DNA of 64,000 nucleotides from Naegleria gruberi (Eukaryota). A model generated the notes under the pieces. That model saw only the letters and a list, made by a program, of their open reading frames with translations, did not search any database and was not told where the DNA came from. The DNA lies in NCBI GenBank assembly GCA_000004985.1, contig GG738848.1; one strand, given 5' to 3'. The number at the start of each line of letters is the position of its first letter. Position 1 is the first letter of the stretch. Of the stretch, positions 2,091-63,664 are shown piece by piece. A program made the position numbers and the translations under genes.

Positions 2091-2278
2091 TTTTTTTGTA
2101 TTTGATTAAAATAATATTAATTCAATTTTATTGAACATGATGCAAATAATATCATTACAAAATAATTGAATGTATCAAAATTTATATCAATTTATCAATT
2201 ATATTGATTGTTTGATAACATGTAGTATTATTTCTAATGATTTCTTCATCAATTTAAATCAAAATCATCATTAAAAAA

Positions 2279-5200
2279 ATGAGTAAACAACTTTTTCGGA
2301 TTTGTAGCAACAATTCTTCATCAGCAGTTGCAACGAGGAATGGTAGTGTGCAGAAGAAAGGCTTGTTGATGACGGTTCGGGATCATGATGTCGGTAATAG
2401 TCAGAGAGGAAACTATCATACCTCTTTTAAAAATCAAGCAAAAATTGGATTATTTGGAGATATTCACTTTCAAGATGTTGGTTTGGAGAGAGTGGTTGAG
2501 ACTGGAGAGTGGATTACAAAAGAGTTTGAAAATCAAAAGGTGGATTATATTGTGTGTATGGGTGATGTGTTAAATACTCGAGAGACTGTTAGTATTAAAG
2601 CACAGAGTTCAGCTCTCCAATTTTTTGATAAATTGTCTCAAAAGATACCGAAAGAAATTCACATTATTTGTGGTAATCATGACTTGAATTTAAAGTATGA
2701 TACAAAAGTGAGCTCCTTGGATGCACTTGGTATGTCAAGTGTATCATCTAATAGAATTTATCTTCATAAGCATATTACAGAAACAGAGTTTGATGGAAAG
2801 AAAGTAGTATTAATTCCATATTATGAGGATACTTCAATAATCAGGGATTGGGTTGTTAAAAAAATCACAAAAGAACCACTTGATAATTCGATTGGGTTCT
2901 GCCATATGGCGATTAATGGAGCAATTCAACGATATCAAAAAGATAGTAAGGAAAATGTTTATTCTAGGAGTTATGATGACCATTCTGGAAAGAATATTTT
3001 GGTTGAAAAGAAAAAAGGAGACAAGAAAAAGGATACAGGAAGCGATATGGATTTGCCTGAGGAAGGATCCAAAGTACCAAAATTTTTAACTCAATTTCAA
3101 AGAGTGTTTTCAGGTCACTTTCACCATCATCACTTTTGTGATAAGAAGGTAGCATACGTTGGTGCACCTATGCAACATCACTTTGGAGATTCAGGTGATG
3201 CATCTAGAGGAGTAGTAATTTATGACACTGAAACTGATGAAATACAATTCGTTCAAAATCCTGAGTGGGATAAATTCAGAATACTACGATTGAGTAAGGA
3301 GGAAGACCTTGGAGAAATCACAGAATATAAGGGAAAGCACGTATCTGTTATTTATGAAAGTTTCGATTTAGTTCCCCAAGTTATACAAGAAAAGTTATTG
3401 AAGGCTGGAGCAAGTTCTGTGAAAAAACACTCTGTGGTAGTGAGAAAGGTTCAATCAGCATTATCTAGTGATGATCGTCAAAAGGATGACGAGAAGGCGT
3501 TCACTGGTCAAATGTTTGAGGATTTCGTTGTAAAATATGTAAAACAGTATGCTAATCTATCATCTATGGGATATGATTCTCAATTCAGTGATAATATAAT
3601 CAAAATTGGAAAGGAAATTATTTCAGAATCAACAAAGGAAGATAACAATAATCTAAATGTTGGTGATACGTTCAAAGCTAATATCAAGAGTATCACAATC
3701 CAAAATTTCTTGGGTGTTCAAGGATGTATTACCTTTGAAATCAAGAATATGCAAAATGGAATTTGGTTTTTGGAGGGATCAAATGGTGCTGGTAAAAGTA
3801 CAATTTTAGAGGCACTAACATGGTGTCTTTTTGATAAGTTTTTAAGATCTGATATGAAGGCAGATTTTGTTGTCAATGACCAAGTCAAAAAGGATTGTTT
3901 GGTCAGAGTAGATTTTGAATCAGGTTATTCTATTGAAAGATTCAGAAAGTATACAAAGACTGGAGAAAAGGAATTACCAGATGAATTAATTAGCAAATCT
4001 GCTCCAGAAAGAAAAGGAACAGGTGTTAGAGTTTTTAATCAAGGAACATATCTCAGCGATTTTGAAAAGGGTTCAACAAGAGATTCCCAGACTTCTATTG
4101 AGTCTCTTACCGGAATTAATTTTGATATGTTCACCAAAGCTATTGTTGTGGGAGACAATGCTGTAAATTTCTTAACCTCTGATGCAAAACAAAGAAGAGA
4201 TTTAATTGAAGATTTATTGGGGTTGTATCTTTTTGATAGCTATTTATCTAAGGCAAGGGAAAGAAAAAAGAGTCTTATTGAAAAAGTATATTCCATGAAA
4301 TCAGAACAGGAAAAAACAGAGTCTACCATTGTTTCCTTGGAAGAATCTCTGAAAAAGTGGAAAGAGCAATTATCACAAATTGATTCTGCTATTTCTGAAA
4401 AAGAAAACGATTATGCCGAATCAGTAGAATTGTGTAATGAATTAGTGGCTAAAAAGAAATCAGCAGAGAATAATTGGAAACAATTCCAGAAACTCAATAT
4501 TGCCAGGCAAAATTACAACAATCTCTTGAAGAAAAATGATCAATTAGAAGTCAGAATTAATACCCTCGAAAAGAATCTAGAAAAATTAGCAGAGGAAAAG
4601 GGGTCATTCTTTACTGACGATATCACAGATGTTAAACAATTGGAGAGATATTTTGAGGAGAATATTAATGAAATCAGATCTAATTTGAAGAGATTTTCAC
4701 AAACTTTGATGGAGAGCAATGTAGAATTAAATGTTTCTAAAGAGAAATTAGAAAAGTTGATGGACCTTTCTGAAAACAATGAATGCCCATATTGTGAGCA
4801 ACCTATCAAGGAACACACTCACGAGAAAATTCTTGAAGAAAAAAGAACCATTGAAGCTAGGGTTGAAGAGTTGACACAAAATATTGAGCATATTAATTTT
4901 ACTATTGCAGATTTGCAAGAGGAAATGGATGATTTGGAACGCTCTAAAAAATCCACAATGCAATCTCTTACCAAACTTGAAAATACAATTATCCTAAACC
5001 AGAAGGAGAAGGCAAATCTTGAAAATGATCTGGTCAATATTAGATCATCTATTGATTCTTCAGAAAAGGAATTGCAAAGTTTATCTAATGAATCTGAGGA
5101 CGTTGAGGCTACTCTTAATAGCTTGGTATCCCAAGAAAGAAAGGCAATGCAAAAAAAGTACGAATTGGATGCCAACATTAAATTCTCAAAGAAGAGAAAA

Positions 5201-5803
5201 TTAGAACTTGAACGAGACATAAAATCTAGTGAAGATTCTTTGGAAAATCTCAAGATAGATTATGAAACTATTTCTACAAGCTACAAGGATTATGAGCAAG
5301 ATTTTTCTGCTCTTGAATTTTGGGAAAAGGCTTTTGATAAAAAGTCAAAGAAATCAACCAAAGATGATTTTGAAACAATGAGATCATTCTTATTGAACAA
5401 ATCTATTGAAGATCTCAATAATATTTTGGATGAATATTCTAAACTTGTTGGAAGTGATATGTTAAAGATTACATTTGACTCTGATTTAATGATCAAAGAG
5501 GATTATGGTAAACGTTCTTCTGGACAACGTAAAAGAAATCACTTGATGATTCATTTTGCATTGTTCGAATTGGTTAGGCAGAGATCTAGATTCAGAAGCA
5601 ATTTCCTAATGTTGGATGAAGTATTTGATGCCTTGGATGTAAATGGGCAAGCACAAGTACAGCAAGTCATTGAGATGATTTCCACCAAGATTGATAAAGT
5701 ATTTGTAATTTCTCACTCAACCTCAAACATGGAACTGAGAAAAAAGGCAATTGTTGCCACCATGTCAGATGAGGGATCAAAGTACAAACTAACCTATAGA
5801 TAA
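2279..5803 (+). CDS. Fusion protein: N-terminal Mre11/SbcD-like calcineurin-type metallophosphoesterase plus C-terminal Rad50/SbcC-like ABC ATPase with coiled coil and CxxC zinc hook (1174 aa, no intron)
   Basis: Phosphoesterase motifs GDIHF (I), CMGDVLN (II), CGNHD (III), FCHMAING (IV), SGHFHHHH (V). Then Walker A GSNGAGKSTILEAL, a long heptad coiled coil with central CPYC hook, signature-like SSGQRK, Walker B/D-loop FLMLDEVFDALD and H-loop VISHS. Confidence 0.8.
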   Translation: MSKQLFRICSNNSSSAVATRNGSVQKKGLLMTVRDHDVGNSQRGNYHTSFKNQAKIGLFGDIHFQDVGLERVVETGEWITKEFENQKVDYIVCMGDVLNTRETVSIKAQSSALQFFDKLSQKIPKEIHIICGNHDLNLKYDTKVSSLDALGMSSVSSNRIYLHKHITETEFDGKKVVLIPYYEDTSIIRDWVVKKITKEPLDNSIGFCHMAINGAIQRYQKDSKENVYSRSYDDHSGKNILVEKKKGDKKKDTGSDMDLPEEGSKVPKFLTQFQRVFSGHFHHHHFCDKKVAYVGAPMQHHFGDSGDASRGVVIYDTETDEIQFVQNPEWDKFRILRLSKEEDLGEITEYKGKHVSVIYESFDLVPQVIQEKLLKAGASSVKKHSVVVRKVQSALSSDDRQKDDEKAFTGQMFEDFVVKYVKQYANLSSMGYDSQFSDNIIKIGKEIISESTKEDNNNLNVGDTFKANIKSITIQNFLGVQGCITFEIKNMQNGIWFLEGSNGAGKSTILEALTWCLFDKFLRSDMKADFVVNDQVKKDCLVRVDFESGYSIERFRKYTKTGEKELPDELISKSAPERKGTGVRVFNQGTYLSDFEKGSTRDSQTSIESLTGINFDMFTKAIVVGDNAVNFLTSDAKQRRDLIEDLLGLYLFDSYLSKARERKKSLIEKVYSMKSEQEKTESTIVSLEESLKKWKEQLSQIDSAISEKENDYAESVELCNELVAKKKSAENNWKQFQKLNIARQNYNNLLKKNDQLEVRINTLEKNLEKLAEEKGSFFTDDITDVKQLERYFEENINEIRSNLKRFSQTLMESNVELNVSKEKLEKLMDLSENNECPYCEQPIKEHTHEKILEEKRTIEARVEELTQNIEHINFTIADLQEEMDDLERSKKSTMQSLTKLENTIILNQKEKANLENDLVNIRSSIDSSEKELQSLSNESEDVEATLNSLVSQERKAMQKKYELDANIKFSKKRKLELERDIKSSEDSLENLKIDYETISTSYKDYEQDFSALEFWEKAFDKKSKKSTKDDFETMRSFLLNKSIEDLNNILDEYSKLVGSDMLKITFDSDLMIKEDYGKRSSGQRKRNHLMIHFALFELVRQRSRFRSNFLMLDEVFDALDVNGQAQVQQVIEMISTKIDKVFVISHSTSNMELRKKAIVATMSDEGSKYKLTYR

Positions 5804-30975: not shown

Positions 30976-32904
30976 CTAAGGAAGCAAACTATTGGTAGTG
31001 TCTTTTCTTTCAAACCATGTACTCTTAATCCAAATTATTCTATTACAAATAACAGCAATTATCATGGCAATACATCCCAAAGACCAAATTACTTCTCCTG
31101 TAATTTCCAAAGATCTTTCATTAACTAAAAAGCAACCTGAACCAATTGTGAATAATAAACTACTTGTAATATTCAATAAATAAGCAGATAAATCAATTGA
31201 CATGAATGTAAAACATTTTACATTGATATCCATTCCATTCCTAGCAGATTTAATGATATCCACTTGTTTTACAATATATTGAATTATTGAAACAATTAAA
31301 TATGAAATAGCTCCAACAGACCAATTGACCTCTGCAATAATTACAATTAAAATAGGTGGATTCAACATGTATAACGAAGATCCAATTGTAAAAGTTAATC
31401 CTCCCAAAATTAAAAAGAAATCATTCACCATTTCCAAAATAATCATTTTCAATGGAGGTAAATCAGGAGGTCTATATGAACTAATATCTTGATGTAATTC
31501 ATGCATTTGATCTTTTAACCTTTTAGAACTTTCATTTTGTAAATTTGTAATTTCCTTCACTTTCTTCTCCCATCTGAAATGTCTAATTAAATTAATGACA
31601 TCAACCAAAGCCTTTCCCAATGGTCCAACAAGGAATAAAACTGATCCTATAATAAACAATAATATTCCCGAGAAGAAGAAGGTTACATTATTAGCAATCA
31701 ATAAACCACATCCAGCCACGAACAATGCTGCTCCAATCACAAACGAAATATCCAACAATGCAAAAGCAGCAATATTTAACCCTCTCATCATTATCAGAGT
31801 AGAGTTCTTCTGCTGATGATTCCCAACGAGAACAAGAATGGAAGAGGAAGGAATTTTGGAATTTTTTTCTCTTGTTTTGTTTGATTCTTCGTGTTCTTGT
31901 TTGATTGTTGTTGTAATATTCTGTTGGTGCTTCTTATTGTTGTTGACGATGGTCTTATTACTCCTGTGGAGAATTTCATGATGGAATTGTGAATGTTCAT
32001 CCTTGTTATCATCATGCTGAAGGTTATGTAGAAGGGAATTAATTTTCGAGTGTTCATCTCTGATCGATTGAAGAAGATCGAGTGTGCTATTGTTGTTATC
32101 TACTGCTGTTGAGGTTGACAATTGTTTGAGATTGTTTGAAGAGTTGGGTTGTTCTTGATGATGGAGATTAGTAAGAGAACCATCCAATGTATAGATTGAG
32201 AAGGTCTCTCCTTCTTCACTTGTTGTTGAAGTGCTACTATGACTTGAATTACTATAGGAAAGTGCATGGTGATACTTTCTTTGGGGAGGTTCTAATATAA
32301 TTTCATTGTTGTTGTCTTGTTCTTCATGATGTGATGATGATGAATTCATTACATTTCTTGAATAAGAAGGTTGAATAGAAAATGCTTCCATGTGAATAGG
32401 TTCAACCAATGTTTCCTCCAATTTACCAATTATTGATTTCTCATAATGTTGATTATCACATCCTGATGGAGGTGTAATATCTGGTTGTTGCTGATGATTG
32501 TTTTTTTCACAAAGAGAGGAAATAATTGATGGAGAAATCTTAGACAAATCAATTGTACTTGCATTCAGCATTTCAATATTCTCTCCAATAATATTATCTT
32601 TAGTTTCTAATGCTTTTTCTTGACAAGTTGAATCGCCTTGTTTCTTCTGCATGTTGTTGAATGGGTTTGTTTGCATTTTCTTATTAATTTGGTTGTGAGA
32701 GTCTGGCAACGAATCATGCAGCTGCTGAGAAGACATTCCAATAAATTTACCTTTCGTATAATTATTTTCTTCTGCATCCTCAATAATGTCCACAATAACA
32801 ACACTATTGCTTGAAGATCCGTGGTCGGCCGAATAGGAGAAATGTTTCTCTTGATTATTTGTCTTGCTATTTATGTGACTTGTTTTGAAATTCATAAAAT
32901 TCAT
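30976..32904 (-). CDS. Membrane protein with N/Q/S-rich N-terminal half and C-terminal six-TM region built from three internal 2-TM repeats (642 aa)
   Basis: Repeated units FVIGAALFVAGCGLL…FFSGILLFIIGSVLFLVGP, FLILGGLTFTIGSSLYML…WSVGAISYLIVSII, LLFTIGSGCFLV…IWSLGCIAMIIAVI. ATG 32902-32904. Confidence 0.55.
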   Translation of the reverse strand: MNFMNFKTSHINSKTNNQEKHFSYSADHGSSSNSVVIVDIIEDAEENNYTKGKFIGMSSQQLHDSLPDSHNQINKKMQTNPFNNMQKKQGDSTCQEKALETKDNIIGENIEMLNASTIDLSKISPSIISSLCEKNNHQQQPDITPPSGCDNQHYEKSIIGKLEETLVEPIHMEAFSIQPSYSRNVMNSSSSHHEEQDNNNEIILEPPQRKYHHALSYSNSSHSSTSTTSEEGETFSIYTLDGSLTNLHHQEQPNSSNNLKQLSTSTAVDNNNSTLDLLQSIRDEHSKINSLLHNLQHDDNKDEHSQFHHEILHRSNKTIVNNNKKHQQNITTTIKQEHEESNKTREKNSKIPSSSILVLVGNHQQKNSTLIMMRGLNIAAFALLDISFVIGAALFVAGCGLLIANNVTFFFSGILLFIIGSVLFLVGPLGKALVDVINLIRHFRWEKKVKEITNLQNESSKRLKDQMHELHQDISSYRPPDLPPLKMIILEMVNDFFLILGGLTFTIGSSLYMLNPPILIVIIAEVNWSVGAISYLIVSIIQYIVKQVDIIKSARNGMDINVKCFTFMSIDLSAYLLNITSSLLFTIGSGCFLVNERSLEITGEVIWSLGCIAMIIAVICNRIIWIKSTWFERKDTTNSLLP

Positions 32905-33603: not shown

Positions 33604-36600
33604 ATGTCCCAACAACAACAACAACAACAGGAGGAAGAAATTGATCCAACATTGTTGAATTATAGAAACTTGACATTGTATGTAAAAAAGGGTGAAAGTA
33701 AGGATGTTGTCTCGGCATTGATCAGAGAGAATGAAAGTTCAAGTCAATCATCCTCTTCCGAAGATATTCAAAATAATGTGGAGGAGGCTTTTTCCAAGAC
33801 TGTTGATGAATCTACATTCCGAATTGAAGAATTAGATGAGGAGAGTTTAGAAAAATTATTAGCAGAATTATTAAAAGATCAAGATGATCAAGAAGTGTCA
33901 ATTCAACAAAATTATCTAATGAGAGAACAATCACTAAAACCTCCAGAACCTGGTACTGTTGAAATTAAACAACAAGTTGAATTTCCTCCTAAATTAGATC
34001 AATTAGAAACTGCCATAAATTCTGTAGGAAATTATCTGGCAGAAAAGGCAACAGAAAACAAGAAACAAGAAACAAACTTTAAAATCATTAGATCTGTTCC
34101 AACTGGAAAGCAAAATTCGGAAATAAGTTCAGTACCATTTATTTCCATTACATTTAGTCATGATATGATTGAAGAATTTGATGGAGAACCAAAATCATTT
34201 GAAGAAATTGATTTTGTTGAAATTAGTCCAGTCACTGAAAATGTTAAGGAAGGAAAATGGAAATGGATTGGAACTAAATCTTTAGTATTTCAACCAAGAT
34301 TCAGATTTGATAGATCTAATGAATTCACTTACAAGATTCTGAAAGAAAAGACCAAATCTGTGTTTGGTAACACGATTGAAGAAGATTTGGTGGTCACTTT
34401 CAAAACGCCAACATCACGCACTCTCTCAGTTATTCCTTCGTCAACAAGTTTCCCAATTTCCGAACTTCCTTTCATTTTCCTTCAATTTGATCAAGATATG
34501 GATAAGCAAAGTGTTCTTGCACATTTGTCAATAACAGTTTCTTCTAAATCTATTGGTGTAGAAGTATTAGAAGAAACATCAATTATTTCCAAAATGTTGG
34601 AAGATTTGGATTATGCTAAAAAGTTTCCATATGTTTTTGGATCATACAATAGATGCCTTCAAGGCACATATGACCCAAAGAGGTGTATGTGGCTGAAGTT
34701 GCATATTGCCAATGAAACTTTACATGCTGGAAAGGATTATCCAAAAATTGGATTAGGAGAATATTTGAGTATTTTATTGAAAAAGGGGTATAAGAGTTTG
34801 GAAGGACCAATACCGTCAGCTCATGAATACTCGACAGGTATTTATGGTTATTCCAAAATGGCAGTCAACTATCATTACCCAAAGAAACATTTATTTTATA
34901 ATGATATTTATCCAGGATGTTCATTTACTTTCAGTTTCAACAATCCAATTGATTTGGACAAGATAGAAAGTATTGAAACATTTGTCCAAGTTGAACCAGC
35001 CATTAAAAATTATAAGGTAACTTGTAATGGTAATAGTATTGTAATATCTGGTGATACACTTGCTAGAGAAAAGTATCGTGTGAAAATATTGAAAGGTGTC
35101 CCTGATATTTATAATCAAAGCTTGGAAAATGAATATGAAGCAACTTTTGAAGTGAGCGGAGAAGATAGAGAATTCAACATGACTCTTTCAAACTCAACAA
35201 TTATGCCACCTTGCTTGTTTGATTCACAAGATCCTTTTCTTTACTTTGATTCTGTAAATATTCAAGAAACTCATGTTATTATTAATCAAGTTGATCCTGT
35301 AGAAATGTACAAGGAAAGCTCTTTTCCCAAGTTAGCTGCAAAAACAGTATTTAATTCATATGATAATTATGATTACTTTGATTGGTATCCTCGTAAACCT
35401 CACAAGATTGGAAAGGAAGTTTTTGATCAAAAGGTAAAACCTGATAACTTTGTAAAAGATAGAACAGTTTCAACCAAGATTATGTTATCTCAATATCTCC
35501 AAAATGGAAAGACTGGATCTCTACTTGTTCACATCAAACCAAAGAGATCTATTTTATACAACTTATTTAATGGATACGAAACCAAGTGGATTCAAGTTTC
35601 AAATTTGTGTGCTGATATTATTAGTATCACAGGAGAGAAGGCAGCAGTTTTTGTTACTGATTTCTCAACTGGAAAACCAGTTCCAAATGCCACAGTAACT
35701 TTATCCTATTCTACCAATAATACACCAACGAAAGATGAAGACTTGAATATTATCTCAACAAGTGAAACAACAAATGAAAATGGAATGGCCTTCTTTTCCT
35801 ACAGTCGTAATTATCACACTGTTTTGATCATTTCAAAAGATCAAGATCAAGTTGTGTACACAAATCCAACAATTTACTCTCATTCAATCCGAACCGACAC
35901 AATTTCTGCTCATATATTTAATGATCGTGGTCTTTACAAGCCAAATGAAAATGTACATATCAAAGGTTTCCTTAGAGATATCAAGTACAATTATGAAAAG
36001 GGTTCTGAGAACTATGGCACCTATTCTATTAGAGAACCATCCACTGAAACTAAAGCTACCTATGAAGTTCAGGATTCTCGAGGTGTCAAATATTTGGATG
36101 GAAAGATTGAATTGAGTCCAAGTGGATCCTTTGTATTGGATTTAACTGTTCCTGATAATGCTAATTTGGGTTCTCATTCCTTGACAATTTGCTATGGATC
36201 TAGAAAATTTAACCACACTTTCAATGTTCAAGAATTTAGAACAAAAGAGTATACAGTTTCTAGCAGCATTATTCCTTCATCTGATAAGGTGGATTTGTTT
36301 ATTGGTGACAAATTGGTAAATAAGGTCAGCGCAAAGTATTATAGTGGAGGTGGCTTGTCCAATTCCCAAGTTAACTACCAGTTCAACACAGAACCTGCAA
36401 CCTTTAATCCAGAAGGATGGAGTAATTATGTCTTTCAAGATACAGATCTCAGAAATAATTACAAGCTCAATACTCTTATTGAAAATATGAAATCCAAATA
36501 TCAAGTATATCAAAGCTTTAACAGTGCAACTGACCCAAGCGGAGATGATCATGCCTTTATGCAGTTGTGGGATCCAGAAAAAATAGTAACTGGTCCAATA

Positions 36601-39600
36601 AGCATTAATTGTAAAGCAAATGTTCAAGATATTAATAGACAAACACAAGGAACATCTAGTGAGGTTATTCTCCACTCTTGTAAATACTATGTTGGTATTC
36701 GCTGTACAAAGAGAGTTGTTATGAAATCTGATGAAAATATTGACTGCTTTTTCATTGTTACAGATATTAGAGGTAAAATTGTAAAGGATATTCCAATATC
36801 TGTAAAATTGGTCAAGTTTGGTTATGATTCTAGGGGTTATGAAAGATGGGAAACCACTAAACCAATCAAGGAAATTAATCTAACCTCTCAAAGTCAACCA
36901 CTTCTTCATACATTTACCCTCAATGAAAACACAAATGATACTGCCTATGGAGAGTATGCAATTTTGTGTGAGGTAAAAGAGAGTGAAAGACCAAAATTTA
37001 GATCAGGCATTAACAGATGTAGTATTCCAATTCGTAAATTTGGATTTAAAGAACACTTGACATCAAAGGGATACACTTCACTCAGCACCAATTCACTTGA
37101 GTTAATTTCTAATAAGTTTGAAACTGATGAATACGAGCCAGGTGAAGAAGCCAAAGTTTATATTGTCTCTCCATTCAATGGTGAGTGCTCTGGATTTGCC
37201 TGGGTTTTATGCAATGGATTAATCAAAGAGGAGAGATTTGACATTACTAACGGTATCCATGAATTGACCATTCCAATCAAGAAGGAATACAGACCTAATA
37301 TCCAAGTAAGAGTTCAATTATTTGGTACTGAAAATTATATTGATGTTGATGACAAGCCAAGAGTTAATCCAGCTCATGCTACTGGATCTCTAACCCTCAA
37401 TATTTCCAAAACCGAGCATGAACTCACTGTAACTGTCACTCCAAAGGACCCAATCTTGAGTCCAGGAAAAGAAACTGATGTCAGCATTCTCGTAAAAGAT
37501 AAGCAAGGAAACAATGTACCAAATTGTGAGGTTTGTTTAATTGTTGCTGATCAAGCTGTTTTAGATATGGCCAATTATTCAGTTACCAATCCAATGTTTA
37601 CCTTTGTTTCTAACAATTCATGCTCTGTTGATTTCTCTTCGATAAGAGATCGAGTAAGATATTGGTTATATCCAAGAAAAAATCAAAGAGATGAAGAAAT
37701 CTTAGCAATAAGACAACAGGCACTCCCTTCTTCAAATTTGTGTGCATGTGATTTAGCTGGTTGCAGTGGAGGCCGTTCGCGTAAATGCTGTGAACAATGT
37801 GGCGAATGTGACGATATGGCTCAAAAGGAATGCAAACGTGAAAAGTGTTGCAAGAAGTCATGTGGCCTTGCATGTTTTTCTAGAAGGTGTTGTAAAAATA
37901 GTAAGGATTCATATGATGGCTCACGATCCCAGATGCCATCTATGGATGATAGAAATGGTGTATTTGAAATTCGTTCCAACTTTAAACCAGATGCTGCTTT
38001 TATTGGATTTGCTCAAACTGATGAAAATGGATTTGCAAAGCTTGATTTCAAATTGACTGACGCTCTCACAAAATTCAAAGTTACAGCTGTTGTAAATGCT
38101 AAACAAGACATGTTTGGTATTGGTAATTCTGCAATTACTACCAATTTACCTATTGCAGTTAGACCATCACTTCCAAGATTTTTGAATTATGGAGATTTAT
38201 GTGATTTGACCTATGTTTTACAAAATCAAACAGATTCTGATTTGACTCTTTCTCTAGTATGTAATGTATCAAATCTCAGAATATTCAATGGAAAGGATAA
38301 AAATCAACGTAAGAAGGGATATACTGTTGTGATACCAGCAATGGGAAGAAAAGAAATTAGAATTCCTGTTCAAGTACTCAAATGTGGTAAGGCTCTTATC
38401 AATCTTGGAGTTAGAGTGGTTAGAGCCATAGCCAAGAATCCTGAAAAGCAAGAACTTGCCGATGGAATGGTTGGATGGTCAGATGCTGTCAAGAATGATT
38501 TCAAAGTTTTTACTCCAGTAACCAATGAAGCTTTTGCAACGTATGGAGATGTTAGTGCAGAAAGTGAAACTATTGTACAACCAATTTCACTTCCATCCAA
38601 GAATCTATTGGCACACTTTGGTGAATTCACTGTTAGTACTTCAACAACAGCTCTATCTACATTGACTGATTCTCTCATTTATCTCTATTCTTATCCATAT
38701 GAGTGTAATGAGCAAATTGCATCAAAGATTTTAGGTATAGTTTGTATGAAGGAAATGATCTTACAATTCTACACACCTGAAGAGCTTCAAAGATTGATGG
38801 AAATTTCTGGAGAGGAAGAAGTTAACACATTCATTAATTCCAACCTTGCTAGATTATTTGATCGTCAAAGATATGACGGAGCATTCTCATATTGGGATAG
38901 CAAGTTAATTGGAGACCCATTCTTAACATGTCATGTAGCTCTCTGTTTTGCAAAATGTAAATCTGAAGGTTACAAAATCCCAGATCAAATATTATCAAGA
39001 ACCAAATCCATTTTGAAGAATATTTCAAGTTTATTCTTCTTTGGATTCCTTTGGCCAAGATGTATTAAGGATACAATCAAATCATATGCCTATTATATTT
39101 TATCATTGTTAGCTGAAAGTGAATCTGATAAGGGACAGGTAATTTCTCTGTGTGAAGGAATTCTTGATCATTATAATAGCATTACTGAATTGACACAAGA
39201 ATTATCCCCAGAGACTGCTGCCTACCTTGCTATGGCCATTCATAAATGTAAGAAGGAACCAGTAACAGAAGAAAAGAAGGGCTTCTTTGCTAAATTTACT
39301 AAAGAAAAGATAACTATTCATCAATGGTTGGATGCTATCAAATCATACTTTAAGGAAAATGTAACAATTGACTCTGGAATTTATGCTCACTTTATTACTC
39401 GTTATGAAGATAATGAACTCGCTCAAATGGTTATGTTGCATTCAAATACCAGAACTGATGCTGTTGTTTTGGGTTGTTTGATGGAAATTGATAGAGAAGA
39501 CAGTAGTGATATTATTCAAAAATTGGTGAGAAGTTTGTTGGCTGCCAGAAATGCAAACAGATATGGTCGTTGGTATAATACTCAAGAAAATTCCATCTGT

Positions 39601-40404
39601 CTCATGTCACTCACTGATTATTTCAAGATATTTGAGAAGGAAATTCCAGATATGAATGTCAATACTTGGCTAGTAGATAGTACTAGACCAGAGGAAACTG
39701 TATTCATGGGTAATCAATCTTGGAAGGGAAGAAGTAGAGAAAAGAAAACTACATCATTACCACTTGTTGCCTTTGTTCCACGAAGTGATATTGAAAAGGA
39801 AGTTGTTAATCCAAATGAAAGTGATTCCAAAAAGTCATTCTTGTTGACAAAGAATGGAGCTGGAAGGCTTTACTATAGAATTGCTCTTTCATACACTCCT
39901 GAAGAATTGGTTCTCAAAGCTCTTGATAAAGGATTTTCAGTTTCCAGAGTTTACGAAGCAATTACCAACCCAGATGATGTCAAGTTTGACAAGTCAACAA
40001 AAACATGGAAGGTAAAATCAGGAGAATTAGTCAGAGTAACAGTTACGATTTGCAATCCAACCAGAAGATACAATGTAGCCATGGTTGACAAGATGCCAGC
40101 AGGTTTCGAAGCTGTCAATCCAGAACTCGATACACAATTTACTGATTTTGGAAATAGTGGCAATGAAGAAGATTTAGCAAACAAATACTATTACAAATGG
40201 TTCGAAAATCAAAACATTAGAGATGAAAGAGTTGAAGCATTCAGCAGAATCTTATATGAAGGCTCCCACGTTTACAGTTATATATGCAGAGCTACTACGA
40301 TTGGATCATTTGTTTCTCCTCCAGCTTATATCGAAGAAATGTACTCTCCTGAATGCTTTGGAAGAAGTAAGACTGAGTTTGTGCAAGTTTATGATAAAAA
40401 ATAA
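33604..40404 (+). CDS. Giant alpha-2-macroglobulin / thioester-containing-protein-like protein (2266 aa), single exon
   Basis: Thioester-like PYECNEQ (CxEQ) followed by TED-type RQRYDGAFSYW. Many MG-like beta-rich repeats upstream. A Cys-rich insert at 37735-37915 sits where a bait region would be. Poly-Gln N-terminus with no signal peptide. Confidence 0.65.
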   Translation: MSQQQQQQQEEEIDPTLLNYRNLTLYVKKGESKDVVSALIRENESSSQSSSSEDIQNNVEEAFSKTVDESTFRIEELDEESLEKLLAELLKDQDDQEVSIQQNYLMREQSLKPPEPGTVEIKQQVEFPPKLDQLETAINSVGNYLAEKATENKKQETNFKIIRSVPTGKQNSEISSVPFISITFSHDMIEEFDGEPKSFEEIDFVEISPVTENVKEGKWKWIGTKSLVFQPRFRFDRSNEFTYKILKEKTKSVFGNTIEEDLVVTFKTPTSRTLSVIPSSTSFPISELPFIFLQFDQDMDKQSVLAHLSITVSSKSIGVEVLEETSIISKMLEDLDYAKKFPYVFGSYNRCLQGTYDPKRCMWLKLHIANETLHAGKDYPKIGLGEYLSILLKKGYKSLEGPIPSAHEYSTGIYGYSKMAVNYHYPKKHLFYNDIYPGCSFTFSFNNPIDLDKIESIETFVQVEPAIKNYKVTCNGNSIVISGDTLAREKYRVKILKGVPDIYNQSLENEYEATFEVSGEDREFNMTLSNSTIMPPCLFDSQDPFLYFDSVNIQETHVIINQVDPVEMYKESSFPKLAAKTVFNSYDNYDYFDWYPRKPHKIGKEVFDQKVKPDNFVKDRTVSTKIMLSQYLQNGKTGSLLVHIKPKRSILYNLFNGYETKWIQVSNLCADIISITGEKAAVFVTDFSTGKPVPNATVTLSYSTNNTPTKDEDLNIISTSETTNENGMAFFSYSRNYHTVLIISKDQDQVVYTNPTIYSHSIRTDTISAHIFNDRGLYKPNENVHIKGFLRDIKYNYEKGSENYGTYSIREPSTETKATYEVQDSRGVKYLDGKIELSPSGSFVLDLTVPDNANLGSHSLTICYGSRKFNHTFNVQEFRTKEYTVSSSIIPSSDKVDLFIGDKLVNKVSAKYYSGGGLSNSQVNYQFNTEPATFNPEGWSNYVFQDTDLRNNYKLNTLIENMKSKYQVYQSFNSATDPSGDDHAFMQLWDPEKIVTGPISINCKANVQDINRQTQGTSSEVILHSCKYYVGIRCTKRVVMKSDENIDCFFIVTDIRGKIVKDIPISVKLVKFGYDSRGYERWETTKPIKEINLTSQSQPLLHTFTLNENTNDTAYGEYAILCEVKESERPKFRSGINRCSIPIRKFGFKEHLTSKGYTSLSTNSLELISNKFETDEYEPGEEAKVYIVSPFNGECSGFAWVLCNGLIKEERFDITNGIHELTIPIKKEYRPNIQVRVQLFGTENYIDVDDKPRVNPAHATGSLTLNISKTEHELTVTVTPKDPILSPGKETDVSILVKDKQGNNVPNCEVCLIVADQAVLDMANYSVTNPMFTFVSNNSCSVDFSSIRDRVRYWLYPRKNQRDEEILAIRQQALPSSNLCACDLAGCSGGRSRKCCEQCGECDDMAQKECKREKCCKKSCGLACFSRRCCKNSKDSYDGSRSQMPSMDDRNGVFEIRSNFKPDAAFIGFAQTDENGFAKLDFKLTDALTKFKVTAVVNAKQDMFGIGNSAITTNLPIAVRPSLPRFLNYGDLCDLTYVLQNQTDSDLTLSLVCNVSNLRIFNGKDKNQRKKGYTVVIPAMGRKEIRIPVQVLKCGKALINLGVRVVRAIAKNPEKQELADGMVGWSDAVKNDFKVFTPVTNEAFATYGDVSAESETIVQPISLPSKNLLAHFGEFTVSTSTTALSTLTDSLIYLYSYPYECNEQIASKILGIVCMKEMILQFYTPEELQRLMEISGEEEVNTFINSNLARLFDRQRYDGAFSYWDSKLIGDPFLTCHVALCFAKCKSEGYKIPDQILSRTKSILKNISSLFFFGFLWPRCIKDTIKSYAYYILSLLAESESDKGQVISLCEGILDHYNSITELTQELSPETAAYLAMAIHKCKKEPVTEEKKGFFAKFTKEKITIHQWLDAIKSYFKENVTIDSGIYAHFITRYEDNELAQMVMLHSNTRTDAVVLGCLMEIDREDSSDIIQKLVRSLLAARNANRYGRWYNTQENSICLMSLTDYFKIFEKEIPDMNVNTWLVDSTRPEETVFMGNQSWKGRSREKKTTSLPLVAFVPRSDIEKEVVNPNESDSKKSFLLTKNGAGRLYYRIALSYTPEELVLKALDKGFSVSRVYEAITNPDDVKFDKSTKTWKVKSGELVRVTVTICNPTRRYNVAMVDKMPAGFEAVNPELDTQFTDFGNSGNEEDLANKYYYKWFENQNIRDERVEAFSRILYEGSHVYSYICRATTIGSFVSPPAYIEEMYSPECFGRSKTEFVQVYDKK
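33608..33632 (+). repeat. CAA trinucleotide run encoding poly-Gln
   Basis: (caa)7 at the start of the A2M-like ORF. Confidence 0.9.
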
Positions 40405-55558: not shown

Positions 55559-58500
55559 TTAAATGTGATACAATTCGTGAATCATGAAAAAGTATTCAAT
55601 TGGACAATATAATTTGAGTTTTCGTACCATCTCTTCATCTAATTTGATCGTTATCAATAAATCTCTACATTGATTGATAATTTCAAATAATTGTTCAATA
55701 ATGAAAGGTTTTAAATGTTCATGTTCCATCAAATCAATAAAAATTCTCATTCCTTTCAAAATTTCATCAGAGGCAACAGAATTTAAACTCAACGAGCTTA
55801 TAGTTCCATTACTATTGTTATTGGAATTTTGAATCAGAGAAGTTTCATAATTATAAGAATGATTAATGGATTCATTCTTCAATGCAGTAATATCATTTAG
55901 AACATTAAATCTACTTGTTATTGTTTCTAATCCTAAACGAACAATTTGATGTTCCATACATGGTTGTATTAAACCTTTCAATACTTGATTAGGAAAATAT
56001 GAAATATGAGTTGTAACATTAGAATATCCAAAATTTAAAGAATCAACAATTAATGAAGATGCAGCACTAATATTTCCAAATAAACTTGTTAAGGTTGATT
56101 TACGTCTATTGTTAGATTGTCCAGATGATCCAATAGTATTATAATTACCAGCATTGCCACTATTATTTGTCTGTTGTTGAGAATCTTGAGAATTAATATT
56201 ATTATAAATTGAATAATTTGGAAACATGGCACTTGTTGGTGAATTCATTCCTCCTCCAACTCCACCACCCATAAATGTACCACTATTATTATTGCTATTG
56301 CTTGTAGTATTAGAAGTAGGAGGATATAACAAGTGAGAAAGTTGAACTGTCCACTCACTAATATTCACACCACTATTATTCATTCCACCAACACTACTAA
56401 CATTACCAAAACTTCCACCTATACCACCTATATTATTATTACTTGAATTATTATTACTACCACCACCTATATTACCAATATTATTATTATTACCAGTATT
56501 AATATTATTATTACCAGTATTATTAATATTATTATTATTATTACTTGAACCACCATTAAAAGATTGTGAAGTTGTTGCAATTAATCTTTTTAAAATTGTT
56601 TGTTCAAATTCTTCTTTTTGTTGTTGATTAGTTCCAAATTTAATGAAATGAAAAATGTGATTTAATAATTTTTGAGTATTTGAATTTAAAATAAAAGAAG
56701 AAATTCCATCAATTAATTGTCTTTCAATAATAGTATTACTAAATAAAGATAAAGTATTAACATTTGATAAATTTTGATCTTTTCTAAAAATTTCATTTAA
56801 ATAAAAACAAGCATAAAATCTAATTATAAAAGGTTGATTTCCATTTTGAATTAAATCCATAAATCTTTTTATAACTCTTTCAGATGAAATTGGTAAAATT
56901 GATAAAACTTTAAAAGTTTTAATAATTAATTCATTATTAATTTCATAATTATTTCTATTATCATCATGAATAAATAATAATAATAACATTGATAAATTAT
57001 TTAATAATTGTTCATGTAAATTATTTTTAATATTTCCATTTTTAGTAGTAATATTACTATTTATAGTATTATCATTATATTTATAGTAATTAATTAAATA
57101 TTCTTTCATAATTTTTAAATAATGTTTATAAACAAGTAAAAGTAAAATTGTTTGTTTAAATTCAGATAAAGGTTGTTGTGAAATTCTAATTAAAGATTTA
57201 AATAAAATTGATAATAAATCACAAAATATTCTTTCTATAATAATTGGAACTCCTTTACATGTAATTGTATAATTTCCATATATAGGTAGTAATTTAGTTA
57301 CTATATATAGACATGATAAATGTTGTTCTAAATTAAAATTTTGATCAAAATAATATAATTCTATATTTGTAGGTATTGAAGCAATTCCTTTTTGTTCATT
57401 ATTATCTAATAAATTTGGTAATAAATATGAAATACATAATTTTAAAATATGTGAAATTTTACCATTTGAATTTAATTCTAAAAATTCAAATTGATTTAAT
57501 AAATTTTTATGTGAAATTTCCATTTCTGTATTATTATTACCATTTTTATCAGAATGAGAAGAAGAACAAGATGATGATGATGAATCTGAAATATCATCTG
57601 AAATATCATCTTCATCTTCTGAATTTACTATATTTGTTAATAAAATTGTAATTGATTTTGCTAAATTTAAAAATCTTGGAATTAAATAATTTTTTTTAAT
57701 TAAAATATATTCCCTTTTTAAATATTGATCATTTTCAATTTGTAAAATATATTGATTATTATTAATATTATTAAATAAATTATTTTGATTATTTAAAATT
57801 CTTTCCATAATTATTAATAAATGAATTTCCTTATTAGTAGAAATAGTTTCAATTAATTTTACAAAATTTAAATCTAAAGAATTTAAAATACAATTATCAA
57901 TAATTGATAAAATACTTGTTTTAGAATTACTATTTATAGTAAAATTAAAAGGTACATAAATGGAAATTAATTTACTCATGTAAGATTCATCTTGTTCAAA
58001 AATATCAATAAATTTAATTAAATGATCATAAAATAATTTGTTAAATTCAATTGAATTATTATAAATTTTACCTAAAAAATTAAAATTAATTAATTTTTTA
58101 AAATCATCCATAATTTTATCTAAAATTAAATTATCAATAATTAAATTTAAATTTAATAATTGTAATAAAAAATTAGAACAATTAATTTTTTCATTATTTT
58201 TATAATTTTTAAATAAAAAATTATATAATTGATAAACAATTTTATAACTATCATAACTTGTTTTAGATTCCAAATTTGGAGAAATAAATTCATCTGGATT
58301 TATATTTTGAATTATATTAATTAAAGTTAAAATTAAATTAAATAAAATTATAATTCCTTCATCATTTTTATAATTATTAATTAAAATTAATAAATCATTA
58401 ATTGACTTTTTTAGTAATTTCATATAAACATTTAAAATTTGTCTATTTTGTATAATTTCTATATTTGAATTTAAAATAATTAATAATAAAAATGGTGTTG

Positions 58501-59418
58501 TATTATAAATATTTAATAATAAATTACTCATTTGTTCAAATAAATAATTTAATTGGCAATGTTCAATTAATTTAGTAATTCCAAAACAAGTATGTACATA
58601 ATTAGAAATATTAAAATTTGTAATATTAAAAAAATCAGAATCATTAAATTCACTTAAATTAATTGGTTGTGATAATTTTAAAGAAGGTGTAATTGACCTT
58701 CTAAAAATAGATTTTGTTTTCTTTTTTTCTAAATTTATAATTAAATCTTCAGAAATTTTCTTATTTTTTAAAAAATCACTTAAAATTTCTATAAATGTAT
58801 TTGAATTTAAATCATTATTATTAAAATAACTTGTTTCATTTTTAATTAAAATTCTTAAAGCAATTTGTTGAATACTTGTATATTTAGAAGTAACTGCCCT
58901 TTTTAGATATTCTCTATATATAGTTTCAATTTCTTGTATATCTTTTAATTCTCCATTTATATTATTAAGAACATTACTTCCATTTATATTATTATTATTA
59001 TTATTATTAGTAGTATTATTAGTAGTAGTGGATGATGATGATGGTGATGAATTATTCCATAAATTACCACTATTAGATTTATTAGATGATAATCCATTTA
59101 AAATACTACTTGTATGATTATTCATACTATTATATTGTCTTGAATGTTGTTGTTGTTGTTCTTTCTTATTTCTTATATTCATTATATTCATTATACTATT
59201 ATTACTATTATTATTATTATTAGATCTACTACTATTATTTTTAAAAGAATTAGAAGTAGATGATAAATTATCAACACTATTTGAATAATTTGTTGTTGAT
59301 GATGAAATTTGTCTAAAAGAAGATAATTCATTCTTTCTTCTAATTTGATTTGTAAATTGTTCAAGTTTATCCAATGATAAATTTCTAATTAAAATTCTTT
59401 CAATAATTAATTCTTCAG
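55559..59418 (-). CDS. C-terminal portion of giant Asn/Ser-rich protein-kinase gene (continues across the assembly gap)
   Basis: 1271-aa ORF, open in frame right up to the N-run. Asn/Ser homopolymer tracts and a Leu-rich helical region. Confidence 0.6.
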
Positions 59419-59468
59419 NNNNNNNNNNNNNNNNNNNNNNNNNNNNNNNNNNNNNNNNNNNNNNNNNN
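59419..59468. other. Assembly gap (run of 50 N) inside a coding region
   Basis: Literal n characters. The ORF is open on both flanks. Confidence 0.99.
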
Positions 59469-62400
59469 AAATTGTGGTAAATATCCTAATAATGGAAATT
59501 GTTGTGATGCAATTTGATGATCATCTTCATAATATTGTTGATAAATAAAAACTAATTGTCTCCAAATTAGGCGATACAATTGTGGTCTTTCAGAAAAGAA
59601 ATCATCGGGTAATTTTCTAAACTTTTCAATTTTGGAAACTGATAAATATTCTGCTAAATCTAACATGAATTCCATAAATTCATTAGATGTTAATATTTTT
59701 TCCTTTTTTGTAAATTGTTCAATATTATTAAAGGAAATTCTCTTTCTTTCATCACTTTCTTTTAATGAAAGTCTATTTCCACTACTATTATTATTATTAT
59801 TAGTAGTAGTAGTATTAGTAGTAGCACTACCTCCTCCACTATTACTATATATACTTGAATTTGAGATAACACCACCACTTGAAGAATTTGTTTGATTGTT
59901 AAATAAATTCAAATTCTTTGAATCTCTTTTACCCATTGAAAATCTTAAACTTCTACTTCTGACACGTCCACCACCAGCACCAACACCACCACTAGATGTT
60001 GGTGTTCCACTACCACCTACATAATTAGAAGTAAAAACACCAGTACCAGCACCACCACTATTAGTATTAGTATTATTTGGACTAATACTGAGTGAATGAG
60101 CCATAGCAGTATTGGAATCAGATGAATTTGGTATTAAAGTGGATGGAGTATTAGATGCTGAATTAAATACATCACTATATTGTTGTTCAATATTAGCAAA
60201 TAAAGAAGGTGTTACAACAACAACAAGTGAATCAGTTGATGAATCATAATCCATATGAGTTGATTGTTGTTGCTGCTGTTGTTGTTCAGATCCTCTTCTA
60301 AAGAATGATTGTGAATGATGATGTGATGATTGATTCATTCCAATACTATTATTACTATTAACATTTCCAAATAAATAATTATTAGATGCCAAATTACTTG
60401 GTAATAAATTCAAATCAGATGAAATGTAAAATTTGTTTAAAAATTGTTCTAACATCATTCTAATTGGTATTTCATTCATTTCAATTAAACTATTACTAGT
60501 ATTAGTATTACTATTAGTAGTATTAGTATTATTACTAGTATTATTAGTAGTAGATTCAATATTTTCCTGTTGTTTGAGTGCAAAATAATGAGCAAATGAT
60601 GGAATTCTAGCAATTTCCAAATATCTAAAATCATATTCATTCAATTCATTAAATAAAGTATTATATAAATTTAATGATCCACTATAATTCTTTTTATCCT
60701 TATTCTTTTTAACATTTGAATTGGCATTAATTGAAGAAGAAGAAGTGGATGATGAAGAATTTGATTGTCCTGAAACAATATTTCCTAAAATATTTGATAA
60801 ATTAGTAGAAATGAATAAATTAGGAGGAGGTGGAGCACAATTTTGTAAAAGAGATGAAATATTATTAATACCCATTGATTGAATATCAATAGTTTTTAAA
60901 ATATAATTATAATGTTGTGATTGATTAAAATTTGGATCTAATGGATGTTGTTGTTGTTGCTGAGTAAAATTTTGATTTTCAATAATATAAATGGTATTAT
61001 TTGTTAAATTTGATAATTGTGACATGATATTAAAATATTCTTGACCTTTAAAATGTTGAAAATGATCAAAAATTAAAATACATTTACCATTTAAAATTAA
61101 TTGTTTTAAATATTGTTGAATTTCCTTATTAAATTGTAAATGTTGTTTTTGTAAATTGTTTGCAGTTGATGAATTATTTCTAGAATTAAATCTTGGACTT
61201 TGTGTAAAACTACCAAAATTAGAATTTGAATTTTCATTAAATAAAATATCATTTGCTAATTTTATAACATTTCCAAAATAATATTCAAAACATCCTTGAA
61301 TTATTTTATCTATAAAATCATTTATATTTGGCATATTTAATATATTTCTTAAAGATACCATAATTGGTATTTTAAATAAACTATTAGAATGATTTGATAA
61401 TAATTGATTTAATAAATTATTATTACTTGCCATATTAGAAGAATTACTAGTATTTAAAGTATAAATATGTTCCATATAATATCTATGTATAGATGAAATA
61501 AAAAATGATAAATCTGAATCTGTAAAATTACAATTTCTACAATTTAAAACATAACATATACAAAGTGATGAATATTTGTTATATTGAAAATTATCATTTC
61601 CACCTCCTCCATTACCATTTCCACTATTATTACTTCCAATACTACTATATCCACTACTACTATTTACACTATTAATACTATTATATCTATTATTAGAAGA
61701 TTGTGTACTAAATCTATTATTATTATTATTATTATTATTATTACTGATATTATTACCGATATTATTGATATTATTATTGTTAATACTATTTCTATAATCG
61801 AATGAATTTGAATTATTTGAATCAATTAAATGACTTGATTGAAATAAAAGATCAAAATTTGTATTTCTAACACCAATAACAGCACCTCTCTTTCTTGTTT
61901 TAAAATTATCACCATCATTAATATCCATTGAAAATACATTCATTGACATTCTATTAGATGCTATATTAGAATAGCATGATAATCCAATTGTAGAAGAAGA
62001 AGAGGATGATGATATTATTGAATTAGATTGATTATTCATATTAATATTATTGGATTGATTCATATTAGTATTATTAATATTGGATTGATTGATAGATGTT
62101 GAAATGGTATTATTTAAAAATGGTGAATTAAATAGTGGTGAATTATTATTAGCAACACCTGAAGAAGAATTAAATGAAGAATTTCTTGATATTGAAATTG
62201 GTAATGAAGATGCAATATTTGATACATTAATATTACTTATATTTGTTGTTGTTATTGAAGTGGTAGTGGTGGTATTATTATTATGAATATTATTATTATT
62301 AATATTATTAATATTACTATTTATAGTAGTATTATTATTATTATTATTATTTAATAAATTATTTAAACTTGATGAATGTGAAAGTTTTCTTGAAGAAGAA

Positions 62401-63664
62401 AATTGATTTGATGATAAATAATTATTTTGAGGTGTAATATAAGAAGTAATTTCCAATTTTACTTCTTTTAAAAATCGAATATAATCAAATTTTCCTTTTA
62501 TAGAAAATATTAAATTATCTTCATCTTGAATTCTTTTAAATAAATCATATAACATTACATTCATATTATTTTCATTAAATGTTTCAGATTTATCTTCTTC
62601 CTCGTTTTCATTAAAAATATTACTATATATATATAAATTACTAAAATATTCATCCTTAAATGGAAAGTTTTTACAATTTTGTACACATTTTACAAAAGTA
62701 TAAATGGAAACATTATTTTCACTATCACTTGATAATAAAGTTTTTAAAACTTTTTCAGATTTTGAATGAAAAGCAGATTTTGTAAAAAAATAATAACAAT
62801 CTTTAAATTCATTCCAAGAAACTTTGTAATTTTGAGTTCCAAACATTTGATCCCAAAAATGTCTTGCTAATCTATAAATAATATAATAGGTAGATGTAAA
62901 TTTATGTATAAATGATAATGAATTTCCTAAATTAGTATTTCCTAAATTGGATGATTGATTATTCATTAAAATATTACTTAAATTAGAAGACATGGGTGAT
63001 GATGAAATCATTTGAATATTTCTAGGTGAAAAATCTAATCCATTATTATTATTATTATTATTATTTATATTTATATTATTTATATTATTTATATTATTAT
63101 TTATATTATTATGATCTATTAAATTTAAATTATATGAAGAAATTGATTGTATTGAATCAATATCTTTTTGAATTGATTCTAATGCAGATAAAATATCTAC
63201 TTTTTCATCCATACTTGTATTTATATTTCCATTAATGGATGTATTATTACCATTAATAGAATGATGATTGTGATGATTATTATTAATATTATTATTAAAA
63301 TTTGATTCTTTTCTTTCTTTTAATAAAAAATTTAAACATTCAGTTGCATTTAATCTTTCACTTGAATCTAATCTTAAACATTTATATACCAATTTTAGTA
63401 ATATTGAATGTCCTTTATCAAGTAATAAAGTTAATAAATTAAAAGATTGATTCTTATCAATACATTCACTTATAAAATTATCAATTACTAATTTAGTTTC
63501 ATAATTATTTGAACAATTAAATAATAAATCTCTTAATGAATCAAATCGACTTCTCCTTTTTTGTACAAGTAATTGTAATGCTACTATTCCTAATGCCCAC
63601 ATATCAACTGATTCATTATAATATTTACCATCAAATATTTCAGGTGCCATATAATTTTTAGATC
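59469..63664 (-). CDS. Central exon of giant protein-kinase gene: kinase C-lobe followed by ~1350 aa Asn/Ser/Gln-rich low complexity
   Basis: …GSKNYMAPEIFDGKYYNESVDMWALGIV… (subdomains VIII-XI), then poly-N/NNI repeats. Acceptor AAAAAG|GATC at 63665. Confidence 0.65.

Follow-up and report, generated by a model that had tools for sequence, protein, structure and literature searches.

A single-chain Mre11-Rad50-type protein of Naegleria gruberi with phage relatives and a candidate mitochondrial presequence

Proteins in which an Mre11-type nuclease and a Rad50-type ATPase are joined in one polypeptide have been known since Yoshida, Claverie and Ogata (2011; PMC3175470) described such fusions, with a scattered occurrence, in eukaryotes, viruses, bacteria and plasmids. 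The sources listed there comprise Mimivirus (R555), Bacillus phage 0305phi8-36, plasmids of Clostridium kluyveri, a Deferribacter megaplasmid and six eukaryotes, which include Dictyostelium (Q8T663), Physcomitrella, Phaeodactylum and Micromonas. The fused proteins were found to lie outside the canonical clades, their hosts keep the canonical genes, and a viral origin followed by lateral spread was proposed (PMC3175470). Neither Naegleria nor organelle targeting is mentioned in that study, and searches for later literature on a Naegleria fusion, or on a mitochondrial fusion of the SbcCD/Mre11-Rad50 type, returned the 2011 paper only. Here, a fused gene is described that lies on a stretch of 64,000 nucleotides (nt) of Naegleria gruberi DNA (contig GG738848.1, assembly GCA_000004985.1), which is referred to as the window in its full length. 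The explanation that we consider best, with a probability of roughly 0.55 for the whole of it, is that of a long-resident Naegleria gene for a single-chain Mre11-Rad50-type enzyme with intact catalytic motifs, SbcD-like module first and SbcC-like module second, which belongs to the virus-associated family and may be directed to mitochondria by a presequence.

The gene consists of one open reading frame (ORF) on the plus strand with a length of 3525 nt, corresponding to 1174 codons and a stop codon, with zero internal stops. Its ATG at position 2279 is the first ATG 3' of in-frame stops. The original prediction, which was made from the letters of the window alone, had proposed a single polypeptide combining an SbcD/Mre11 nuclease with an SbcC/Rad50 ATPase at a eukaryotic locus, and this is what the ORF, the Pfam matches, the Foldseek and PDB profile searches and the neighboring genes show. 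The features of the gene are collected in Table 1.

Table 1. Coordinates of the fused gene, its encoded modules and its 5' spacer in the window (residue numbers refer to the fused protein; CDS, coding sequence; UTR, untranslated region; pLDDT, predicted local distance difference test)
Feature	Position (nt)	Strand	Basis
Complete CDS of the fused Mre11/SbcD-like and Rad50/SbcC-like protein	2279..5803	+	Uninterrupted ORF; full-length homologues with 28-60% identity
N-terminal extension, residues 1-54; basic, Ser/Thr-rich, acid-poor, disordered; candidate mitochondrial presequence	2279..2440	+	pLDDT ~30; taxon pattern; composition
Mre11/SbcD-type phosphoesterase (nuclease) domain, residues 55-300, motifs I-V, with Lys/Asp-rich disordered insert 234-254	2441..3178	+	Pfam Metallophos; invariant residues; PDB profile matches
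Beta-rich domain C-terminal to the nuclease, residues 301-385, which matches the capping domain of Mre11	3179..3433	+	AlphaFold strands 311-384; Foldseek
Disordered linker 386-410, then helices 415-424 and 434-454; candidate helix-loop-helix binding the base of the Rad50 coiled coil	3434..3670	+	AlphaFold; role by analogy with T. maritima Mre11 (PMC3175470)
N-terminal half of the Rad50/SbcC ABC ATPase head, residues 465-650	3671..4228	+	Pfam AAA_23 and SMC_N; E. coli SbcC 6s6v_C, 2e-7; invariant residues
Antiparallel coiled coil, residues 651-1018, with predicted CPYC zinc hook at its tip (836-839, nt 4784-4795)	4229..5332	+	AlphaFold helices; conservation
C-terminal half of the ATPase head, residues 1019-1174	5333..5800	+	Motif positions; conservation; weak Pfam SbcC_Walker_B
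AT-rich, A-rich intergenic spacer of 188 bp, common to the divergent CLP1 gene; presumed promoter and 5' UTR	2091..2278	.	ORF map; sequence; Pfam-identified CLP1; promoter function inferred

Within the nuclease module, the calcineurin-like phosphoesterase family Metallophos of Pfam was matched at residues 55-282 (2.6e-9), and the five motifs of this fold are represented by D61-x-H63, G95-D96, G132-N-H-D135, H209 and G279-H-F-H282. In an alignment of 24 full-length homologues, to which all statements on invariant positions refer, D61, H63, D96, N133, H134, H209, H280 and H282 do not vary, and the nuclease can be aligned with T. maritima Mre11 at motifs II, III and V. A PDB-wide search with a profile of the N-terminal region retrieved Mre11/SbcD chains only (best 1.3e-11). 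Foldseek aligned 360-440 columns to nuclease plus capping structures of Mre11 and SbcD at target-normalised template modelling (TM) scores of 0.55-0.70; T. maritima Mre11 (3qg5_C, 1e-11), M. jannaschii Mre11 (4tug) and the SbcD structures 7dog and 6s6v_A from S. aureus and E. coli were matched. The curated SbcD model TIGR00619 reached 24.7 bits, which is below its cut-off of 77.65, and by this score the N-terminal module is not a canonical SbcD. Between motifs IV and V, a Lys/Asp-rich low-complexity insert (2978-3040) is disordered in the structural model. Insertions at the same spot occur in the Naegleria sequences, in the closest relatives of eukaryotic context (P0004-P0008) and in P0010, and in none of the phage or fungal members.

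The second module carries the complete motif set of an ATP-binding cassette (ABC) ATPase. Pfam AAA_23 (Rad50/SbcC-type) was matched at residues 471-711 (2.9e-15), SMC_N was also found, and SbcC_Walker_B gave a weak match at residues 1072-1131. Walker A is formed by G500SNGAGKS507 (nt 3776-3799) and the Q-loop by Q604; the C-terminal half contains the signature SSGQ at 1080-1083 (nt 5516-5527), the Walker B motif LMLDE at 1110-1114 (nt 5606-5620), a D-loop with D1117/D1120 and an H-loop with H1146. Invariant residues are G500, G503, G505, K506, S507 and Q604 in the N-terminal half and S1080, G1082, D1113, E1114 and D1120 in the C-terminal half, and H1146 is found in at least 90% of the homologues. 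The best sequence match to a canonical structure is E. coli SbcC (6s6v_C, 2e-7). With 66.9 bits (9e-19) for the curated SbcC model TIGR00618, whose cut-off is 478.5, and about 50 bits (at most ~4e-15) for archaeal Rad50 models with cut-offs of 700-1087, the ATPase module, as scored by these profiles, is neither a canonical SbcC nor a canonical Rad50.

An AlphaFold2 model built on the 24-homologue alignment (mean pLDDT 75.7) shows disorder at residues 1-51, an alpha/beta nuclease at 55-300, a beta-rich part at 311-384, a disordered linker at 385-410, the N-lobe of the ATPase from 465 and its C-lobe at 1019-1174. The two helices predicted just ahead of the ATPase are a candidate for the helix-loop-helix, by analogy with Mre11. 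The coiled-coil helices span 651-776, 785-833, 845-934 and 943-1018, and the break at 834-844 holds the CPYC motif, which, from its place at the tip of the modelled coiled coil, is predicted to be the zinc hook. A CPxC hook is kept in most homologues and missing in P0007, P0016 and P0029. Foldseek searches against PDB matched Rad50 of the Chaetomium Mre11-Rad50-Nbs1 (MRN) complex (7zr1, 2.8e-15), and Rad50, SbcC and SMC chains were among the structural matches, which agrees with the long coiled coil. Because the PDB profile search retrieved Mre11/SbcD chains only and because of the Foldseek matches, the modules are truly of Mre11 and Rad50 type, beyond generic phosphoesterase and ABC domains. 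The original prediction had placed all five phosphoesterase motifs, the ATPase motifs and the CPYC correctly, and these are conserved in the homologues; the profile and structure-prediction checks that it called for recovered both modules, with Metallophos and AAA_23 as the respective families. Its coiled coil of about 600 residues has to be shortened to about 370 in the AlphaFold model, as the distance of about 570 residues from Walker A to the signature includes the globular N-terminal lobe.

No entry of the protein collection is identical to the window protein, and the database match ranked first is a protein of N. lovaniensis with 60% identity. The N. fowleri protein XP_044557140 falls into the same cluster as the match ranked second; orthologues are annotated in both species. 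In a profile search, a tight clade was recovered at 760-1350 bits, with Naegleria, Physarum, the testate amoeba Pyxidicula, the ichthyosporean Creolimax and Pezizales as named members, to which an exhaustive search added the choanoflagellate Salpingoeca punica (656 bits) and Geopyxis (Pezizales; 408 bits). This exhaustive HMMER search yielded 8422 cluster representatives at E <= 1e-30, including well over 100 full-length fused representatives. Transcriptome assemblies from Physarum, Pyxidicula and Salpingoeca punica contain complete fused ORFs, which points to a single transcript in these relatives. Hundreds of relatives annotated as “Rad50/SbcC-type AAA domain-containing protein” form a subfamily of Sordariomycetes and Dothideomycetes (Fusarium, Trichoderma, Xylaria, Chaetomium, Phyllosticta), which scores about 620-710 bits against the profile of the window protein's clade. 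A further, metagenomic group is present among the full-length fused representatives of the exhaustive search. On one contig of this group, L091 (1830-2786 and 6218-10369), a distant fused homologue (P0097, 1383 aa) is encoded near a separate stand-alone Metallophos gene of 318 aa, together with a Peptidase_S74 protein of 1770 aa, a SIR2 gene and a faint match to DUF5763; judging by these genes, the context may be viral and giant-virus-like.

The closest relatives found outside eukaryotes come from phages. In the PHROG database, the SbcC-like family phrog_77 was matched at 1.1e-77 and the SbcD-like family phrog_100 at 1.7e-34, compared to 9e-19 for the best cellular SbcC/Rad50 model, so that at the level of profiles phage families fit the fused protein much more closely than cellular families do. 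The nearest relatives outside eukaryotes that the searches recovered are fused proteins encoded in replication modules of uncultivated phages, all of them from metagenomes. These proteins (P0013, P0014, P0021, the L010 protein and P0057-P0062) are 1109-1173 aa long, fall into the window protein's clade and share 38-42% identity with the window protein in the globular parts, which equals its closeness to fungal members. The phage-like contigs, one of which (L010) is a 220-kb IMG/VR contig, are compact with a G+C (GC) content of about 55%, and the fused gene adjoins genes for a Toprim primase, a DnaB helicase and a 5'-3' exonuclease. On L007, L008/L009 and L010, the gene order is DnaB-like helicase, small ORFs, 5'-3' exonuclease, small ORFs and fused SbcDC-like gene, and on L007-L009 a Toprim primase gene on the opposite strand precedes this array; as read from these contigs, the shared order in L007-L010 looks like a conserved replication module of one group of uncultivated phages.

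The viral structure library BFVD yielded full-length fused proteins as its best matches (1e-47 to 1e-30), from Listeria and Tenacibaculum phages as well as from relatives of mimivirus. A tblastn search of cultured phages (INPHARED) found no close fused relative and only split genes of the gp46/gp47 type with 23-26% identity. Among the matches listed for 185,579 bacterial and archaeal species genomes there was likewise no close relative, with one weak match of 21%. A neighbor-joining tree on 667 globular columns supports the Naegleria, Pezizales and phage groups at 100% each. Its backbone is not supported, and therefore the tree tells neither in which direction nor how often the gene passed between eukaryotes and viruses. 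On the strength of these matches, the fused protein belongs to the non-canonical, virus-associated family of fused Mre11/Rad50 proteins.

Comparison with the fusions described in 2011 reveals the same order of modules, with a nuclease, a region as long as a capping domain plus helix-loop-helix, and an ATPase with coiled coil. In both cases, the proteins lie outside the canonical models and the distribution is sporadic with viral relatives; a canonical pair is kept by the hosts of the earlier fusions and is also reported for the genus Naegleria. They differ in that the clade of Heterolobosea, Physarum, Pyxidicula, Creolimax, Salpingoeca punica and Pezizales was not part of that study. The fused protein of Dictyostelium dimigraforme (P0030) is only distantly related, with 241 bits as opposed to at least 760 within the clade. 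The proteins of uncultivated phages align colinearly over their full length and exhibit the same motifs and a CPxC hook, but they are devoid of the N-terminal extension and reside in compact replication modules. In the Sordariomycete/Dothideomycete subfamily, the fused architecture is also the same; it is a separate subfamily without the presequence-like extension. E. coli SbcCD as well as T. maritima and eukaryotic Mre11-Rad50 share the nuclease fold and motifs, the ABC head, the coiled coil and the hook, but consist of two separate polypeptides of low similarity (E 2e-7 at best), and the coiled coil of eukaryotic Rad50 is longer than that of the fused protein. T4 gp46/gp47 belong to the same two PHROG families, but again represent two polypeptides, with the low identity found for cultured phages and a shorter coiled coil.

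Consequently, the view that fusion is the usual bacterial or phage-style arrangement does not hold, since E. coli SbcC/SbcD and T4 gp46/gp47 are each two polypeptides and the fused form is a sporadic, virus-associated variant. The fused homologues in phages, giant viruses and other eukaryotes that the original prediction had suggested looking for were retrieved by sequence and structure searches, and the distinction that it drew from the canonical nuclear MRN complex agrees with the canonical MRE11 and RAD50 reported for Naegleria. A canonical MRE11 (NfTy_089370) has been reported in N. fowleri and both MRE11 and RAD50 in three Naegleria species, although one review is unsure about RAD50 in Naegleria. 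The novelty that had been claimed is much lower, given the annotated orthologues in N. fowleri and N. lovaniensis and the hundreds of fungal relatives. What is new are the closest phage relatives and a basic, acid-depleted N-terminal extension that is present in the eukaryote members of this clade and absent from its phage members.

This extension comprises 54 residues in the window protein and 17-180 residues in members found in or assigned to eukaryotes, against 0-1 in members from phage contigs, which begin right at the first strand of the nuclease domain. The extensions of the eukaryote members cannot be aligned with one another. When the first 40 residues or fewer of 26 eukaryote members were pooled, Asp and Glu accounted for 1.6% of residues, compared to 14.1% in the rest of the proteins (binomial p ~7e-40, which overstates independence as the sequences are related, while the extensions themselves share no alignable sequence). 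Lys and Arg are enriched (17.9% versus 12.7%), as are Ser and Thr (18.7% versus 14.3%). To the eye, the extensions of Salpingoeca, Peziza, Rhizina and P0027 resemble textbook presequences, and plastids are absent from all named taxa of the clade. As far as composition and taxon distribution can tell, this pattern favors a mitochondrial presequence added to a virus-type protein, as it is what such an addition would look like. For the Naegleria protein, the N-terminus had been described beforehand as basic, Ser-rich and lacking acidic residues, of which the first two attributes are correct and the third is true for the first 34 residues only.

The genomic context shows the gene to be a long-resident, vertically inherited nuclear host gene and no recent viral insert. 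This follows from its housekeeping flanks, its host-like composition and the synteny with N. lovaniensis. It is flanked by genes for class II lysyl-tRNA synthetase (LysRS) and CLP1, and the further neighbors identified by Pfam code for glycosyltransferases, a myosin-tail/PH protein and a protein kinase. With a GC content of 0.334, a GC content at third codon positions (GC3) of 0.287 and a codon usage correlated at r = 0.91 with that of the other window genes, it is indistinguishable from its neighbors. The N. lovaniensis orthologue is located in the same LysRS-Clp1 neighborhood with one extra gene in between. This extra gene of 738 aa (L093 5275-7491) has zero Pfam matches and lies between CLP1 and the fused gene, where the window has the 188-bp spacer. 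A recently integrated fragment of a giant virus or phage, which would not be a working host gene, could be suspected from the viral nature of the closest non-eukaryotic relatives found. Such an element is nevertheless highly improbable and was rejected on context, synteny and composition: the housekeeping genes flank the gene directly, N. lovaniensis has kept the neighborhood with a protein identity of about 60%, the clade shows conservation of every catalytic residue, and no virus-specific Pfam family was found among the ten largest window ORFs scanned. Even less credit, and practically none, is given to the explanation that the fusion is an artefact of two adjacent genes read as one ORF or of an assembly join. 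It is contradicted by the single 3525-nt frame and was rejected on the more than 100 full-length fused representatives, with fused ORFs in independent genomes and in transcriptomes.

A more serious alternative concerns the place of action. The same enzyme might be nuclear or cytosolic and serve as a back-up in genome maintenance or in the attack on foreign DNA, such as ends and hairpins of giant-virus or plasmid DNA, similar to SbcCD or SMC-like defence ATPases, with the extension being a disordered tail or a localisation signal. Amoebae do serve as hosts to giant viruses in which fused proteins of this type are encoded, and the ATPase part matches one LmuB model of the Lamassu defence system at 2.4e-30. 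This match is far weaker than that to the phage SbcC-like family (1e-77), no LmuA- or LmuC-like genes are found next to the fused gene, and none of the defence-system matches covered the nuclease domain of what is a full Mre11 nuclease and capping fold. Membership in Lamassu was ranked low in view of the LysRS/CLP1 neighbors and the Mre11-type N-terminal domain. Several observations weigh against the explanation preferred here, and some of them would suit a nuclear or cytosolic enzyme. In the ascomycete sister subfamily, only about seven residues precede the nuclease domain, and therefore mitochondrial import is not a family-wide trait. In the supplements to the mitochondrial proteome of N. 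gruberi (PMC8134430), zero matches were obtained by keyword, a weak result as the protein may be listed as hypothetical or by accession only. In the window protein, the first acidic residue is at 35 and another at 37, and the second methionine, residue 31, could be the true start. Finally, every curated SbcC, SbcD and Rad50 model scores far under its cut-off. On the other side, acid depletion that recurs in the non-alignable extensions of 26 members, drawn from widely differing eukaryotes, is typical of presequences, and a neutral tail would not be expected to show it. We regard a nuclear or cytosolic role as possible but not the favored outcome, and mitochondrial import of the Naegleria protein through residues 1 to ~54 as about an even bet given its N-terminal sequence. 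The ascomycete proteins P0195-P0305 share a conserved short basic N-terminus, MRxxxxxxRWLLLSDLHF, and do not possess the presequence-like extension of Pezizales members; this contrast at the N-termini suggests a change of cellular location within fungi.

A mechanism can be proposed for the single-chain enzyme by homology with SbcCD and Mre11-Rad50. Two chains would dimerise via their nuclease domains, their ATP-engaged heads and the zinc hook. As ATP is bound and hydrolysed, the head would open and close on a DNA end or hairpin and so gate its access to the Mn-dependent nuclease. The nuclease would next cut or resect the DNA end, which would feed into recombinational repair or recombination-dependent replication. 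The covalent link would replace the tether between helix-loop-helix and coiled coil as the sole connection of the modules, and a fusion was shown to be sterically compatible with the T. maritima complex (PMC3175470). The closest functional model is T4 gp46/gp47, which act in end resection during recombination-dependent replication. With residues 1 to ~54 as presequence, the enzyme would work on mitochondrial DNA (mtDNA) and the canonical MRE11-RAD50 pair in the nucleus; likely substrates would then be broken or hairpin-forming mtDNA and ends used in recombination-dependent replication.

Extended to the whole clade, the proposal would be that of a phage-derived single-chain Mre11-Rad50 with mitochondrial import in a broad though patchy range of eukaryotes, namely Heterolobosea, Amoebozoa, choanoflagellates, ichthyosporeans and Pezizales; in their mitochondria it would process mtDNA ends and hairpins for recombination-dependent replication or repair; this wider version is put forward tentatively and is more doubtful than import in Naegleria. 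A mitochondrial fused enzyme might date to an early eukaryote. It would join other virus-derived parts of the mitochondrial DNA machinery, such as the phage-like RNA polymerase and the Twinkle helicase. A T3/T7 phage-like DNA polymerase gamma is named in the paper on the predicted mitochondrial proteome of Andalucia, the main text of which contains zero entries for SbcC, Rad50 or Mre11.

Mitochondrial localisation of the clade would supply a missing end-processing enzyme and add one more case of viral genes recruited for the maintenance of an organelle genome. To our knowledge, the processing of double-strand breaks and the start of recombination-dependent mtDNA replication are poorly known in most protists and fungi, and we know of no dedicated Mre11-Rad50-type nuclease that has been assigned to mitochondria. 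A mitochondrial clade would also give structural and biochemical studies a compact model of Mre11-Rad50 in one chain. If the clade is not mitochondrial, the protein is one more uncharacterised member of a family known since 2011. A practical interest is possible in that an orthologue exists in N. fowleri, a lethal human pathogen, and no human counterpart is known.

Three further regions of the window show unusual features. At 55559-63650 (-), two adjacent ORFs of 1271 and 1411 aa are separated by 40 nt and have a GC content of 0.19-0.22 and a GC3 of 0.06-0.07, compared to a GC3 of 0.21-0.36 elsewhere in the window. Their products contain 16-18% Asn, short AT-rich tandem repeats are present, and the upstream ORF starts with the C-terminal half of a protein kinase domain. 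The two ORFs may be parts of one very large gene that runs past the end of the window or across an intron. A 2266-aa ORF at 33604-40404 (+) contains the domains MG2, A2M_BRD, A2M, bMG10 and, weakly, Big_1, with host-like codon usage; its bacterial-type alpha-2-macroglobulin domain set makes it a candidate for a bacterial-like gene in a eukaryotic genome. At 30976-32904 (-), a 642-aa ORF contains two YrhK-like domains (Pfam PF14145), a family known mainly from bacterial membrane proteins.

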